From Escherichia coli (GTDB lineage: Bacteria; Pseudomonadota; Gammaproteobacteria; Enterobacterales; Enterobacteriaceae), in the NCBI RefSeq assembly GCF_965641715.1, contig NZ_OZ282453.1: a stretch of 64,000 nucleotides of DNA. One strand, 5' to 3'. Of this stretch, positions 2,553-23,307 are shown in pieces; positions within the stretch are counted from its first letter, which is position 1, and the number at the start of each line of letters is the position of its first letter. The notes under the pieces are model-generated. The model was not told where the DNA came from. It saw only the letters and a program-made list of their open reading frames with translations, and did no database searches. The position numbers and the translations under genes are program-made.

Positions 2553-2709
2553 TTCACCTCTGTTTCCTCCCTGCATGTGTGGGGAGGATTTCGTCTTATT
2601 CCCTTTTCAACTTCCAAATCACCAAACGGTATATAAAACCGTTACTCCTTTCACGTCCGTTATAAATATGATGGCTATTAGAAAGTCATTAAATTTATAA
2701 GGGTGCGCA

Positions 2710-3726
2710 ATGGCCGTTAACTTACTGAAAAAGAACTCACTCGCGCTGGTCGCTTCTCTGCTGCTGGCGGGCCATGTACAGGCAACGGAACTGCTGAACA
2801 GTTCTTATGACGTCTCCCGCGAGCTGTTTGCCGCCCTGAACCCGCCGTTTGAGCAACAATGGGCCAAAGATAACGGCGGCGACAAACTGACGATAAAACA
2901 ATCTCATGCCGGGTCATCAAAACAGGCGCTGGCAATTTTGCAGGGCTTAAAAGCCGACGTTGTCACTTATAACCAGGTGACCGACGTACAAATTCTGCAT
3001 GATAAAGGCAAGCTTATCCCGGCGGACTGGCAGTCGCGCCTGCCGAATAATAGCTCGCCGTTCTACTCCACCATGGGCTTCCTGGTGCGTAAGGGCAACC
3101 CGAAGAATATCCACGACTGGAACGACCTGGTGCGCTCCGACGTGAAACTGATTTTCCCGAACCCGAAAACGTCGGGTAACGCGCGTTATACCTATCTGGC
3201 GGCATGGGGCGCAGCGGATAAAGCTGACGGTGGCGACAAAGCCAAAACCGAACAGTTTATGACCCAGTTCCTGAAAAACGTTGAAGTGTTCGATACTGGC
3301 GGTCGTGGCGCGACCACCACTTTTGCCGAGCGCGGGCTGGGCGATGTGCTGATTAGCTTTGAATCGGAAGTGAACAACATCCGTAAACAGTATGAAGCGC
3401 AGGGCTTTGAAGTGGTGATTCCGAAAACCAACATTCTGGCGGAATTCCCGGTGGCGTGGGTTGATAAAAACGTGCAGGCCAACGGTACGGAAAAAGCAGC
3501 AAAAGCCTACCTGAACTGGCTCTACAGCCCGCAGGCGCAGACCATCATCACCGACTATTACTACCGCGTAAATAACCCGGAAGTCATGGACAAACTGAAA
3601 GATAAATTCCCGCAGACCGAACTGTTCCGCGTGGAAGACAAATTTGGCTCCTGGCCGGAAGTGATGAAAACCCACTTCACCAGCGGCGGCGAGTTAGACA
3701 AGCTGTTAGCGGCGGGGCGTAACTGA
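2710..3726 (+). CDS. cysP: Thiosulfate/sulfate ABC transporter periplasmic binding protein
   Basis: 338-aa ORF with signal peptide ([25 protein letters not shown]); first gene of the cysPUWAM arrangement. Confidence 0.93.
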
Positions 3727-4559
3727 TGTTTGCAGTTTCATCAAGACGCGTGCTGCCGGGCTTTACCTTAAGCCTCGGCACCAGTCTGCTGTTTGTTTGC
3801 CTGATTTTGCTGCTGCCACTCTCCGCGCTGGTGATGCAGCTGGCCCAGATGAGCTGGGCGCAGTACTGGGAGGTGATCACCAACCCGCAGGTGGTCGCAG
3901 CCTACAAAGTGACGCTGCTGTCGGCGTTTGTGGCATCGATTTTTAACGGCGTTTTCGGTCTGCTGATGGCGTGGATCTTAACTCGTTATCGCTTCCCTGG
4001 CCGCACGCTGCTTGATGCGCTGATGGATTTACCCTTTGCGCTGCCAACGGCAGTCGCCGGTTTAACGCTGGCCTCGCTCTTTTCTGTAAACGGTTTTTAC
4101 GGTGAATGGCTGGCGAAGTTTGATATCAAAGTCACCTATACCTGGCTGGGGATTGCGGTGGCGATGGCCTTTACCAGCATTCCGTTTGTGGTACGTACCG
4201 TGCAGCCGGTGCTGGAAGAGTTAGGCCCGGAATATGAAGAAGCGGCGGAAACGCTTGGTGCAACGCGCTGGCAGAGTTTCTGTAAAGTGGTGCTGCCGGA
4301 GCTTTCTCCGGCGCTGGTGGCGGGCGTGGCGCTGTCGTTTACCCGTAGTCTTGGTGAGTTTGGCGCGGTGATATTTATCGCCGGGAACATCGCCTGGAAG
4401 ACGGAAGTGACGTCGCTGATGATTTTTGTGCGCTTGCAGGAGTTTGATTACCCGGCGGCGAGCGCGATTGCTTCGGTGATCCTCGCGGCATCTCTGCTGC
4501 TGCTGTTCTCAATTAACACTCTGCAAAGTCGCTTTGGTCGGCGTGTGGTAGGTCATTAA
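3726..4559 (+). CDS. cysU: Sulfate/thiosulfate ABC transporter permease
   Basis: 277-aa multi-TM ORF; start overlaps the cysP stop by 1 nt. Confidence 0.93.
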   Translation: MFAVSSRRVLPGFTLSLGTSLLFVCLILLLPLSALVMQLAQMSWAQYWEVITNPQVVAAYKVTLLSAFVASIFNGVFGLLMAWILTRYRFPGRTLLDALMDLPFALPTAVAGLTLASLFSVNGFYGEWLAKFDIKVTYTWLGIAVAMAFTSIPFVVRTVQPVLEELGPEYEEAAETLGATRWQSFCKVVLPELSPALVAGVALSFTRSLGEFGAVIFIAGNIAWKTEVTSLMIFVRLQEFDYPAASAIASVILAASLLLLFSINTLQSRFGRRVVGH

Positions 4560-18434: not shown

Positions 18435-19361
18435 ATGAATTATTCTTTAAAACAATTAAAGGTTTTCGTCACAGTAGCGCAGGAGAAAAGTTTTAGTCGT
18501 GCAGGAGAGCGTATCGGCCTGAGCCAGTCGGCAGTAAGTCACAGTGTGAAGGAGCTGGAAAATCATACTGGTGTTCGCCTGCTGGACAGAACCACGCGTG
18601 AAGTGGTGCTTACAGATGCAGGGCAGCAGTTGGCTTTGCGTCTTGAGCGACTGCTGGATGAACTTAACAGCACGTTGCGCGATACCGGGCGTATGGGGCA
18701 ACAACTGAGCGGAAAAGTTCGGGTCGCTGCCAGCCAGACCATTTCCGCGCATCTTATTCCGCAATGCATTGCTGAAAGCCATCGCCGCTATCCAGATATT
18801 CAGTTTGTCCTGCACGATCGTCCGCAGCAGTGGGTGATGGAAAGTATTCGCCAGGGAGATGTCGACTTTGGCATCGTCATCGATCCAGGCCCAGTGGGCG
18901 ATCTGCAATGTGAAGCGATTCTTTCCGAGCCTTTCTTTCTGCTTTGCCATCGCGATAGCGCTTTGGCCGTGGAAGATTATGTACCCTGGCAGGCATTACA
19001 GGGAGCGAAATTGGTGTTGCAGGATTACGCGTCAGGCAGCCGACCGCTGATTGACGCAGCGCTGGCGCGCAATGGTATTCAGGCGAATATTGTGCAGGAG
19101 ATTGGACATCCGGCGACGCTGTTCCCGATGGTAGCCGCAGGCATCGGCATCAGTATTCTTCCCGCACTGGCGCTACCATTGCCTGAAGGTAGCCCACTGG
19201 TGGTAAAGCGCATTACGCCGGTTGTTGAACGCCAGTTGATGCTGGTGCGCAGGAAGAACCGTTCACTTTCCACCGCCGCTGAAGCGTTATGGGACGTGGT
19301 ACGAGACCAGGGCAATGCGCTAATGGCTGGTCGGGAAGGGGATCCGTTGTATCAGATATAG
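18435..19361 (+). CDS. yfeR: LysR-family transcriptional regulator
   Basis: 308-aa ORF with N-terminal HTH ([35 protein letters not shown]) and LysR substrate-binding domain; divergent from yfeH. Confidence 0.85.
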
Positions 19362-19693
19362 ATATCGATATGAGTCGTATTTTCAACAGGATTTAGAAGG
19401 GATACATTCAGAGACAAACGCTGCTCTTTCTCCTGCGCCTTTTCTGCCTGCTGTCTCTGCAACTGCGCCAGTTGTGTTTCCAGTAGGGTGATTTGCTGTT
19501 GAATCAATTCGGCCTGTTTTTGCTTGTCTTCAGCACTGCCGCTAGTGTCTACAATCTCTTTAATTTGTTGAGTGAGTTTGATGATTTGCTGACTTATCCG
19601 CGCGATTTGTGAAGCAACATCGCTACCTTGTGATGCCCTGTTACTACTCTGTGTTTGTATGGAAGGAATTGAAGTTGAAGAGATAGTGGCCAT
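19352..19693 (-). CDS. FlxA-like small Q-rich coiled-coil protein (113 aa)
   Basis: ATG at 19693 with AGGA 7 nt upstream; Gln/Leu-rich heptad region ([35 protein letters not shown]) and C-terminal IDIYI resemble FlxA-family proteins; overlaps the yfeR 3' end by 10 nt. Confidence 0.65.
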
Positions 19694-20468: not shown

Positions 20469-21884
20469 ATGAAAATCAAAACTCGCTTCGCGCCAAGCCC
20501 AACAGGCTATCTGCACGTTGGCGGCGCGCGTACTGCTCTTTACTCCTGGCTTTTTGCACGTAACCACGGCGGTGAGTTCGTGCTGCGTATTGAAGACACC
20601 GATCTTGAGCGTTCCACGCCGGAAGCTATCGAAGCCATTATGGATGGCATGAACTGGCTGAGCCTGGAGTGGGATGAAGGTCCGTACTACCAGACCAAAC
20701 GTTTTGATCGCTACAACGCAGTGATCGATCAGATGCTGGAGGAGGGCACTGCTTATAAATGCTATTGCTCTAAAGAGCGCCTGGAAGCGCTGCGCGAAGA
20801 ACAAATGGCGAAAGGTGAGAAGCCGCGTTATGACGGTCGCTGCCGCCACAGTCATGAGCATCACGCTGATGATGAGCCGTGTGTCGTACGTTTTGCTAAC
20901 CCGCAGGAAGGTTCTGTTGTTTTTGACGATCAGATCCGTGGTCCGATCGAGTTCAGCAACCAGGAGCTGGATGATCTGATTATCCGCCGTACCGATGGTT
21001 CCCCAACCTATAACTTCTGTGTGGTTGTCGATGACTGGGATATGGAAATCACCCACGTTATCCGTGGCGAAGACCATATCAACAACACGCCACGCCAGAT
21101 CAACATTCTTAAAGCCCTGAAAGCGCCGGTACCGGTTTACGCGCACGTTTCTATGATCAACGGCGATGACGGCAAAAAACTGTCCAAACGTCACGGGGCA
21201 GTCAGCGTAATGCAGTATCGTGATGACGGTTATTTGCCAGAAGCACTGCTGAACTATCTGGTGCGTCTGGGCTGGTCCCACGGCGATCAGGAAATCTTCA
21301 CTCGTGAAGAGATGATCAAATACTTCACTTTGAATGCCGTCAGCAAATCTGCCAGTGCGTTCAACACCGACAAGCTGCTGTGGCTGAACCATCACTACAT
21401 TAATGCGCTGCCGCCGGAGTATGTTGCTACTCACTTACAGTGGCACATTGAGCAGGAAAATATCGATACCCGTAACGGCCCGCAGCTGGCTGATCTGGTG
21501 AAACTGCTGGGCGAACGCTGCAAGACGCTGAAAGAGATGGCACAGAGCTGCCGTTATTTCTACGAAGATTTTGCTGAGTTCGATGCCGACGCCGCGAAAA
21601 AACATCTGCGTCCGGTAGCGCGTCAGCCGCTGGAAGTGGTTCGTGACAAACTGGCCGCGATTACTGACTGGACCGCTGAAAACGTTCATCACGCTATTCA
21701 GGCGACGGCGGATGAGCTGGAAGTGGGTATGGGTAAAGTTGGTATGCCGCTGCGTGTCGCCGTAACCGGTGCGGGGCAGTCTCCGGCACTGGATGTTACC
21801 GTTCACGCAATCGGTAAGACACGTAGCATTGAGCGTATCAACAAAGCGCTGGCCTTTATTGCTGAACGCGAAAACCAGCAGTAA
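20469..21884 (+). CDS. gltX: Glutamyl-tRNA synthetase
   Basis: 471-aa [33 protein letters not shown]... with HIGH-type and KMSKS-type (KLSKR) motifs. Confidence 0.97.
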
Positions 21885-21903
21885 TTAGCGTGTAAAAAGA
21901 TAA

Positions 21904-21933
21904 ACGGCAGGAGATAATATCCTGCCGTTTTTT
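21904..21933 (+). terminator. Rho-independent terminator downstream of gltX
   Basis: Hairpin acggcagg-agataatat-cctgccgt followed by tttttt. Confidence 0.65.
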
Positions 21934-21935
21934 AT

Positions 21936-22328
21936 TTATGCTGATTCGTCAATATCGAGACGGGCGAGGAAATTGCGAATTCCTTCACGTGACAAAAATT
22001 GCGCGACTTTTTCCTGCTCAATGTCTGTCATATTATCTATCGCGTTGATGATTTGTCGATACGCCGGGGCGCGTGCTCCAGGAGCGTATTCAGCAATTCT
22101 CTCTTCAGCTTCCATCAACATTGGTGTGTTATGGAAGGCTGGCGTGTTCTGAATAAACTCGCAAACTTGCGTATCGACCAGAATAAGTCTGGCACGACCG
22201 CCTTTCACGCCGGGAAATTTTTCCGTTTTCCAGCCTTTTTCTCTGATCCAACGGTTAACAGTTTGTTTAGCCACACCGAGGCATTCAGCCAGTTCTTCGG
22301 TGGTCATTTTATTGCGTAATCTTTTCAT
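21936..22328 (-). CDS. yfeD: Small putative DNA-binding protein, YfeD-like (130 aa)
   Basis: N-terminal HTH-like segment (LAECLGVAKQTVNRWIREKGWKT); paralogous to the adjacent yfeC. Confidence 0.8.
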   Translation of the reverse strand: MKRLRNKMTTEELAECLGVAKQTVNRWIREKGWKTEKFPGVKGGRARLILVDTQVCEFIQNTPAFHNTPMLMEAEERIAEYAPGARAPAYRQIINAIDNMTDIEQEKVAQFLSREGIRNFLARLDIDESA

Positions 22329-22329
22329 A

Positions 22330-22689
22330 TTATTTGCTATCGCGAATCCCTAAGCGTTGTAACAATCCGATAATCCCTTCCCGCAGAAGCAAGGATGTAA
22401 ACTGTTTTTGTTCAACTGGCGTCATCTCTTTCGCCAGTGTCACCAGCAATACTTCAAGCGGCGCATCACCAGAAAGGGCAGGCGCTTCTCCCTGACCTTC
22501 TGGACGTTCAGCATTACGAATATATTCACGAACCTGTTCATTGACGTGAACCAGTCGGGCTTTGCCACCCTGGACGCCTGGTTTTGGTGACGTCGTCCAG
22601 CCTTCCTTGCGTACCCATTTATTAATGGTCTGGCGGCTATAGCCGGTCAGTCTGGCAAGTTCATCTGGCGTCATCCTCTCCTTGAACAT
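22330..22689 (-). CDS. yfeC: Small putative DNA-binding protein, YfeC-like (119 aa)
   Basis: N-terminal HTH-like segment (LARLTGYSRQTINKWVRKEGWTT); tandem paralogue of yfeD, separated by 1 nt. Confidence 0.8.
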   Translation of the reverse strand: MFKERMTPDELARLTGYSRQTINKWVRKEGWTTSPKPGVQGGKARLVHVNEQVREYIRNAERPEGQGEAPALSGDAPLEVLLVTLAKEMTPVEQKQFTSLLLREGIIGLLQRLGIRDSK

Positions 22690-22848
22690 AACAATTCCCT
22701 GAATGTATGTGGGTCTATTAGTAGTTCATTTTATAGCACCACTTTACAGGAAACCGTGACATGAATAACTACTGAATGCGAGCGGTTTTCCAAAATTGTT
22801 CATTTGCCTGATTTTTCAGCGATTGAAACTACACGCTGCAATTTGCCG

Positions 22849-22877
22849 TTGACACATTCGGGCGGAATTCATATGAT
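22849..22877 (+). promoter_or_regulatory. Sigma70 promoter of the tRNA-Ala pair
   Basis: TTGACA-N17-TATGAT followed by GC-rich discriminator gccgccc, about 32 nt upstream of the first tRNA-Ala. Confidence 0.6.
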
Positions 22878-22909
22878 GCCGCCCGTCAACTCGACAAGCT
22901 TTACGTGAC

Positions 22910-22985
<76 letters not shown>

Positions 22986-23024
22986 AATTTTGCACCCAGC
23001 AAATTTGGTACGTAAACGCATCGT

Positions 23025-23100
<76 letters not shown>

Positions 23101-23107
23101 AATTTCC

Positions 23108-23136
23108 AACCCTCGCTGCAAAGCGGGGGTTTTTTG
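23108..23136 (+). terminator. Rho-independent terminator after the tRNA-Ala pair
   Basis: Hairpin ccctcgc-tgcaaa-gcggggg followed by tttttt. Confidence 0.6.
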
Positions 23137-23307
23137 TCTCTGCTTTTTGCCGCTTTTGTAATACAGTCTACGTCCGGGTTAGCGCCGCCTGGTGAAAGCA
23201 TCATTGGATGAAAAATCGGCAACAGGCTGGCCCCTGTTTGCTTCGCGATGCGAATAAACTTATTATTTGTGTGCCTGAAAACCCCGATCAGTGAGAGTAG
23301 TGTACTC

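Follow-up and report, generated by a model that had tools for sequence, protein, structure and literature searches.

Why do two small and visibly related genes of Escherichia coli, yfeC and yfeD, stand in tandem between gltX and a pair of tRNA-Ala genes, and what kind of proteins do they encode? We addressed this question in a 64,000-nt stretch of contig NZ_OZ282453.1 (NCBI RefSeq assembly GCF_965641715.1), hereafter the window, in which the two genes follow one another on the minus strand (Table 1). Overall, we read yfeC-yfeD as a two-gene operon for two paralogous small transcription factors of Pfam family PF07037, and give this explanation, taken as a whole, a probability of roughly 80%. 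Databases and earlier papers already cover the genes, the family they belong to, their paralogy and their binding across the genome; what is added here is the age and synteny of the duplication, the narrow range of the family, the unequal rates at which the two copies evolve, and the domain layout of both proteins.

The relationship between the two proteins is the firmest part of the argument. A first-pass annotation, made from the nucleotide sequence alone, had described two minus-strand open reading frames (ORFs) of 130 and 119 aa lying 1 nt apart, exact in coordinates and strand, and had taken them for tandem paralogues of a small helix-turn-helix (HTH) protein that resemble each other at both ends. 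The pairwise alignment that it had named as a check returned significant similarity: in BLASTP, 48 of 127 positions are identical (38%, with 55% positives; E = 3e-27), and the alignment runs through the C-terminal region (residues 4-129 of YfeD against 2-118 of YfeC), a likeness that we judge from these scores to be far beyond chance. Both proteins match PF07037 over the whole profile (positions 1-122 of 122; gathering threshold 22.9 bits), YfeD at 213.5 bits (E = 1e-63) and YfeC at 173.0 bits (E = 3.6e-51), with much weaker matches to HTH_17, HTH_23, HTH_3 and TIGR01764 limited to the first 30-50 residues. The shared N-terminal motif had been given nearly correctly, YfeC reading TPDELA in place of TxEELA and RQT in place of KQT. 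Within the recognition helix, neither paralogue varies at Q22, T23, N25, W27 or R29, and the two proteins also have in common a C-terminal motif, REGI..[FL]L.RLGI.

Structure prediction, another check named beforehand, gave an AlphaFold2 (AF2) model of YfeD with an N-terminal winged HTH and a mean predicted local distance difference test score (pLDDT) of 75. In this model the N-domain (residues 7-60) is built of a strand (7-9), two helices (10-17 and 21-31), two further strands (35-37 and 47-50) and a helix (53-60), followed by a low-confidence linker (residues 62-87, with pLDDT < 50 over 72-79) and a C-domain of three helices (88-98, 102-115 and 118-123). The alignments agree with such a two-domain architecture, as the N- and C-terminal blocks are conserved and the linker between them is variable. 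As modelled, the N-domain takes the form of an excisionase/MerR-like winged helix of ~60 residues (strand, two helices, beta-hairpin wing, helix), with QT[VI]N[RK]W[IV]R in the recognition helix and PGV[KQ]GG[RK]ARL in the wing; SUPERFAMILY assignments in the supplement of Gao et al. (2021; PMC8464067) likewise call both N-domains "excisionase-like". The conservation of REGI..L.RLGI suggests a structural role for the C-domain (~40 residues), most simply self-association. Similarity in BFVD and PHROGs is confined to the N-domain.

To place the pair in evolution, we relied on a profile search run exhaustively over 1.84 billion representative proteins, which is the basis for regarding the family as small. 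Only 240 matches were obtained at E <= 1e-3, with ~20 full-length clusters at 50% identity; many of the 240 are fragments, and others come from unrelated proteins that carry several HTH units in tandem and are hit in the HTH only. The named members are all from Enterobacteriaceae (Cronobacter, Cedecea, Atlantibacter, Scandinavium, Entomohabitans and others), and the YfeC-like family thus appears tiny and almost confined to that group. A scan of one genome per species yielded 80 loci from ~25 genera, a sample that the alignment used biases towards YfeD-like genes of Enterobacteriaceae. Among these loci, 77 have yfeC and then yfeD on the same strand. A junction of 1 nt is found in 48 of the 76 loci other than the window, and the range over all 76 is -20 to +9 nt. 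The tRNA-Ala(GGC) genes lie divergently upstream with 217-222 bp between the yfeC start and the tRNA 5' end in every genus sampled, in most loci a convergent gltX follows at 30-95 bp downstream, and the neighbours in the genera examined are pdeA, tRNA-Ala, gltX and tRNA-Val/Lys. Linkage to gltX is not universal, with exceptions in Kosakonia and a few relatives; seven Kosakonia loci keep the pair and tRNA-Ala and have no gltX in the downstream DNA examined. The first of the two tRNA-Ala genes, counted from yfeC, carries the anticodon TGC in Escherichia sp. E1V33 and Citrobacter sp. NCU1, with GGC retained in the second.

Because the pair is kept across ~25 genera and its copies are only 36-49% identical within one genome, the duplication must be considered ancient; the first-pass annotation was thus right to see a tandem duplication, which is, however, neither recent nor local to this genome. 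The alignments and a neighbour-joining tree, in which the copies fall into position-specific clades, lead us to conclude that there was one old tandem duplication, no later than the base of Enterobacteriaceae, and that divergence since then has been asymmetric. Over the same genome pairs, mean orthologue identity is 74.6% for YfeC and 57.6% for YfeD, with YfeD further apart than YfeC in 99% of 2926 pairs, and the most divergent family members (in Atlantibacter, Cronobacter and Cedecea) are the position-2 gene of this very locus.

Several loci depart from the usual arrangement. A Logan contig (SRR26825337, positions 413-763) carries a single-copy YfeC-like gene of 116 aa that falls in the YfeC clade of the tree and converges on a gltX, with tRNA-Val and tRNA-Lys beyond. 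The product of this gltX shares only 74% identity with its E. coli counterpart, which makes an origin outside Enterobacteriaceae probable for the contig, and the arrangement may be that of the locus before the duplication, in a more remote gammaproteobacterium. Enterobacter sp. BIGb0383 has three tandem YfeC-like genes (positions 3244-4387 of its locus) with junctions overlapping by 4 nt, the extra one being, from the tree, a lineage-specific duplicate of yfeD. In Cedecea neteri (positions 2597-3357) the junction is 47 nt, not 1 nt, and the position-2 gene (118 aa) scores higher with a YfeC profile (124 bits) than with a YfeD profile (101 bits), so that it could have been replaced by a second yfeC duplication or be an extreme case of divergence. 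No yfeC ORF was found in Escherichia sp. MOD1-EC7003, where tRNA-Ala lies 333 bp from yfeD instead of the usual ~580 bp, indicating that ~250 bp are deleted, and in Enterobacter sp. EA-1 the locus is frameshifted into three fragments; these two are natural losses or disruptions of the pair. A phage origin was rejected on a tblastn search of 50,697 phage records that found no relative, and on the restriction of the BFVD and PHROGs similarity to one domain; plasmid mobility was set aside as well, the 13 plasmid matches being mostly chromosome-size records or chromosome fragments with both paralogues.

The first-pass annotation had also considered the two genes to be probably co-transcribed. We regard this as very likely, given the conserved 1-nt junction, the lack of any predicted terminator between the genes, and a rise of yfeD mRNA in the yfeC deletion strain by a log2 fold change of +4.3 (~20-fold; Gao et al., 2021; PMC8464067 supplement). 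With such a junction, translation of yfeD is probably coupled to termination on yfeC.

The targets, described in the first-pass annotation as not evident, are already in print, as are the deletion and chromatin immunoprecipitation experiments that it had listed as checks. Gao et al. (2021; PMC8464067) gave both proteins a C-terminal 8xmyc tag and mapped 50 YfeC sites (60% in regulatory regions and 40% intragenic) and 36 YfeD sites by chromatin immunoprecipitation with exonuclease treatment (ChIP-exo). In the same study, RNA sequencing (RNA-seq) of a yfeC knockout showed 205 altered genes, among them 20 bound genes of which 16 were derepressed. We find that the two site lists barely overlap, with one position and one neighbourhood (yagU) in common among 50 and 36. 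A position weight matrix (PWM) that we rebuilt from the 16 strongest YfeC peaks contains a central palindrome-like motif of ~8 bits (consensus GTTTCCGGAAAC), in agreement with the "TTC-rich inverted repeats" of the paper, and a weak palindrome at the strongest sites fits a dimer. As to phenotypes, earlier work, in the form in which it is cited in PMC8464067, connects yfeC deletion with more extracellular DNA; an E. coli K1 yfeC::kan mutant was less able to colonise most of the small intestine of neonatal rats and had lower lethality (PMC5847654); and LEE1 transcription in enterohaemorrhagic E. coli was unaffected by yfeC deletion (PMC11508082).

Two side observations concern the published tables themselves (PMC8464067 Dataset S4). 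Some nearest-gene labels misfit the stated genome version, the strongest ChIP site, labelled chaA, falling between chaB and chaC and a yaiA-labelled peak falling inside aroM after coordinate conversion. In addition, a YciT peak lies ~40-70 bp from the ispB/rplU position at which the YfeC and YfeD peaks coincide.

How the operon is expressed was considered from an alignment of the 270 bp upstream of yfeC across 24 genera; in the window, 220 bp (22690-22909) separate yfeC from alaW. As the first-pass annotation had it, the yfeC promoter region is divergent from a strong tRNA-Ala promoter, whose -35, -10 and GC-rich discriminator are invariant in the alignment. On the other strand, the alignment reveals a putative extended -10 element, TGcTATAA(A/C), with TGCTATAA invariant or nearly so; a consensus scan that required a -35 element had missed it, and no -35 is recognisable, which points to a putative yfeC promoter of the extended -10 type without a usable -35. 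The transcription start predicted from it lies near 22722-22724 (minus strand). Further upstream, several conserved blocks (22741-22782) are candidate contacts for a regulator or for RNA polymerase. One of them is the right arm of a palindrome that is intact in most genera, whereas E. coli, Salmonella and Citrobacter have a degenerate left arm (TGCGAGC in the intact form). A CRP-like reading of two other blocks (AGTTA-N6-TCAC, with three mismatches) was rejected since the window holds 201 such matches against a chance expectation of 227. The best intergenic match to the YfeC PWM, GGTTTTCCAAAATT at 22784-22797, is marginal (ranking 10th to 24th in the 64 kb) and not conserved elsewhere. In the interval 22790-22824, upstream of the tRNA-Ala -35, there is a nearly invariant block, with a conserved CAATCGCTGAAAAA at ~22811-22824; it might belong to the tRNA promoter, as an UP element or a site for FIS, and have nothing to do with yfeC. 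Lastly, a 10-nt inverted repeat around the tRNA-Ala -10 (CGGGCGGAAT and ATGCCGCCCG, 22859-22885, plus strand) was discarded as probably fortuitous, only its discriminator arm being conserved in other genera.

The same alignment bears on the start of yfeC, for which a 119-aa and a 114-aa version exist. The upstream ATG is kept across the 24 genera (as GTG in Cedecea) and is preceded at 6-7 nt by a Shine-Dalgarno-like AGGA or GGGA, within a conserved CAGG(A/G)AAT. The extra residues before the internal Met read M-[FLIV]-K-[ED]-R, and their Arg is encoded by AGG, CGG, CGA, CGT or AGA; a residue that stays the same while its codon changes synonymously indicates that translation begins at the upstream ATG. 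We therefore favour the 119-aa start, on comparative grounds, over the 114-aa start of the K-12 annotation, a point that may be useful to annotators. The K-E codons (AAGGA) could also serve the internal ATG as a Shine-Dalgarno sequence, and both starts could be used.

Our main explanation assembles these elements into a single scheme, in which the operon would be read from the extended -10 promoter facing away from the tRNA-Ala promoter, yfeD would be translated by coupling to yfeC termination, and a C-terminal three-helix bundle would mediate self-association. In the published in vivo data both proteins bind DNA, YfeC acting mainly as a repressor at ~50 sites and YfeD occupying a largely different set of 36; following the tandem duplication, YfeC kept the ancestral, slow-evolving role and YfeD diverged faster.

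Autoregulation would be a natural addition to this scheme, and we consider it plausible, with evidence weaker than a published peak label implies, a point of interest for studies of these regulators. The YfeC ChIP-exo peak labelled "yfeC" was converted to window coordinates via NC_000913.3 (error ~+/-10 bp, the offsets being backed by motifs centred in other peaks), and falls ~400 bp away from where yfeC starts, taking in the final 23 nt of the second tRNA-Ala gene and running into the beginning of that gene's terminator.

A number of observations weigh against the operon scheme or parts of it. The published list has no YfeC peak on the yfeC promoter, so that the ~20-fold rise of yfeD in the knockout, which fits autorepression, could also reflect read-through from the construct or polarity. 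Evidence for DNA binding by either protein comes from ChIP-exo in vivo, and the YfeC motif at ~8 bits is weak. Both tags sit at the C-terminus, beside the putative oligomerisation domain, and that of yfeC-8myc directly on the yfeC-yfeD junction. The self-association of the C-domain is something we purely infer, and a sequence search of the Protein Data Bank (PDB) returned no relative. Several YfeC sites of lower signal-to-noise ratio lie at the highly transcribed rpmH, rpmB, rpsU, rplU, lpp and tRNA-Ala. Very highly transcribed loci are prone to artefacts in chromatin immunoprecipitation.

The alternative that survives best is that YfeC and YfeD form an obligate hetero-oligomer and work as a single regulator, with pairing and coupling setting the subunit ratio. 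This would account for an ordered pair with a tight junction in 77 of 80 loci, for recognition helices that are nearly identical, for the C-terminal motif found in both proteins and for their coincident peak at ispB/rplU (position 3332954). Obligate partnership fits less well with nearly disjoint ChIP-exo lists, with the very unequal rates of the two copies, and with a position-2 gene that is re-duplicated in one Enterobacter and YfeC-like in Cedecea. A fused chain, YfeC-(GGGGS)x6-YfeD, modelled with AF2 from a 26-row genome-paired alignment, reached a predicted template-modelling score (pTM) of 0.27 and a mean pLDDT of 60, with C-domains below the confidence of the monomer; this is a weak test that decides nothing. 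An obligate heterodimer is accordingly a possibility that we do not favour, with the odds clearly on the side of two separate paralogous factors.

Less probable again, and in our view rather unlikely, is that the pair is an Enterobacteriaceae-specific regulator of translation-apparatus genes that is physically tied to its targets. Behind this idea stand the fixed 217-222 bp that separate yfeC from the divergent tRNA-Ala(GGC), the convergent gltX of most genera, the "yfeC" peak on the tRNA-Ala 3' end and terminator, and the presence of rpmH, rpmB, rpsU and rplU among the YfeC peaks and derepressed genes. If it were true, the conserved blocks between the two divergent promoters would be shared control elements.

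We give still less credence to the view that YfeC and YfeD are domesticated excisionases (recombination-directionality factors) or architectural DNA-bending proteins. The fold class of the N-domain fits, as does the fraction of YfeC sites that are intragenic (40%); phrog_4151 matches at 7e-9, and YfeD comes close to the TIGR01764 "excise" profile, scoring 27.7 bits (YfeC 18.7) below a cut-off of 28.8. Yet no integrase, att site or prophage gene was seen beside the pair in ~90 loci, the phage records gave no tblastn match, excisionases do not have the conserved C-domain of YfeC and YfeD, and deletion of yfeC alters as many as 205 genes.

Finally, the claim that yfeD/yfeC is a type II toxin-antitoxin pair, ranked with high confidence by RASTA-Bacteria (2007) and repeated in PMC5847654, draws on small, adjacent and tightly coupled genes and a partner with an HTH, but is refuted as far as sequence goes and deserves next to no weight, given that the partners are homologous over their full length, unlike a toxin and its antitoxin, that Pfam, NCBIfam, PHROGs and PADLOC yield HTH matches and no toxin domain, that both proteins bind chromosomal DNA in vivo, that the locus is a fixed, syntenic core in ~25 genera and neither mobile nor patchy, and that yfeC deletion is viable, with yfeD up 20-fold and toxicity not reported.

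The features of the locus are collected in Table 1. The surrounding DNA is ordinary for the species, positions 21700-23300 being 99.8% identical to many complete E. coli genomes, with 5245 of 5426 genomes covering at least 80% of this interval. An Rfam scan gave the tRNAs only. Farther out, directly past the tRNA-Val/Lys cluster, the window has a 113-aa FlxA-like ORF (19352-19693, minus strand), which in the near-identical NZ_OZ197100.1 is followed by yfeR and yfeH; K-12 has xapR-xapB there, and strains thus seem to differ in gene content beside this tRNA cluster.

Table 1. Features of the yfeC-yfeD locus, in positions of the 64,000-nt window.
Feature	Position	Strand	Description
yfeD	21936-22328	-	Second gene, ORF of 130 aa; PF07037 over residues 8-129; RefSeq name yfeD; K-12 b2399
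yfeC/yfeD junction	22329	-	One base between yfeC TAA (22330-22332) and yfeD ATG (22326-22328); TAA-N-ATG
yfeC	22330-22689	-	First (promoter-proximal) gene, ORF of 119 aa; PF07037 over residues 6-118; K-12 b2398
yfeC start, 114 aa	22674-22672	-	Internal ATG; K-12 b2398 annotation
yfeC start, 119 aa	22689-22687	-	ATG; start of the Prokaryotic Genome Annotation Pipeline (PGAP)/RefSeq
Shine-Dalgarno-like AGGGA	22696-22700	-	6 nt upstream of the 119-aa start
yfeC extended -10 (predicted)	22730-22738	-	TGcTATAAA
Conserved upstream blocks	22741-22782	-	Invariant or nearly invariant columns, 24-genus alignment
TTTCnnnTAAA	22753-22743	-	Conserved block
GTCAC	22760-22756	-	Conserved block
AGTTA	22770-22766	-	Conserved block
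CTCGCA	22782-22777	-	Right arm of TGCGAGC-N2-GCTCGCA palindrome in most genera
tRNA-Ala promoter	22849-22877	+	Near-consensus sigma-70, TTGACA-17-TATGAT (11/12); GC-rich discriminator follows
Two tRNA-Ala(GGC) genes (alaW-alaX)	22910-22985 and 23025-23100	+	Divergent from yfeC
Published YfeC ChIP-exo peak labelled "yfeC"	23078-23111		NC_000913.2 2516052-2516085, converted to the window
gltX	20469-21884	+	ORF, converges on yfeD
Bidirectional intrinsic terminator	21902-21930	both	Common to gltX and yfeD; 11-bp stem with 6 G-C pairs, T-runs on each strand

Taken together, these results describe a narrow, almost Enterobacteriaceae-only innovation, kept at a rigid locus as two asymmetric copies, a combination that makes yfeC-yfeD a small and clean example of subfunctionalisation following a duplication in tandem. 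For annotators, neither the toxin-antitoxin label nor the "MerR family" name is supported. The latter is found in near-identical E. coli genomes, where RefSeq calls the product of yfeD a "MerR family transcriptional regulator" and that of yfeC a "YfeC-like transcriptional regulator".

Compared with what is known, the two genes are the same as those of K-12, YfeC (b2398) and YfeD (b2399) both belonging to PF07037 (YfeC-like, formerly DUF1323), and they show no difference of substance apart from the length of YfeC, which is 114 aa in K-12 curation and 119 aa in the window and in RefSeq PGAP. With respect to MerR regulators, we would speak at most of a MerR-like winged helix: the Pfam scan lists no HTH_MerR match (PF00376/PF13411) for YfeD, MerR_1 matches YfeC at 12.6 bits against a cut-off of 21.6, the YfeD model has three short helices after the linker in place of the long antiparallel coiled-coil dimerisation helix and contains no MerR-type effector domain, and no MerR chain aligns with it past the N-domain at acceptable rmsd (root-mean-square deviation). 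MerR regulators act by DNA distortion at promoters with 19-20 bp spacers; the published effects of YfeC are mostly repression. The nearest likeness in fold class is to excisionase/HTH_17/BldC-type proteins (Pukovnik Xis 4j2n, BldC 6amk, pSK1 Par 8csh and RacA 5i41), which have the N-domain fold in common with YfeC and YfeD at a sequence identity of only 19-25%. The yfeC-yfeD locus is without the recombinase or partition context of these proteins, and where they are single-domain or joined to partner domains of another kind, the N-domain of YfeC and YfeD is followed by a linker and by a three-helix C-domain peculiar to the family.

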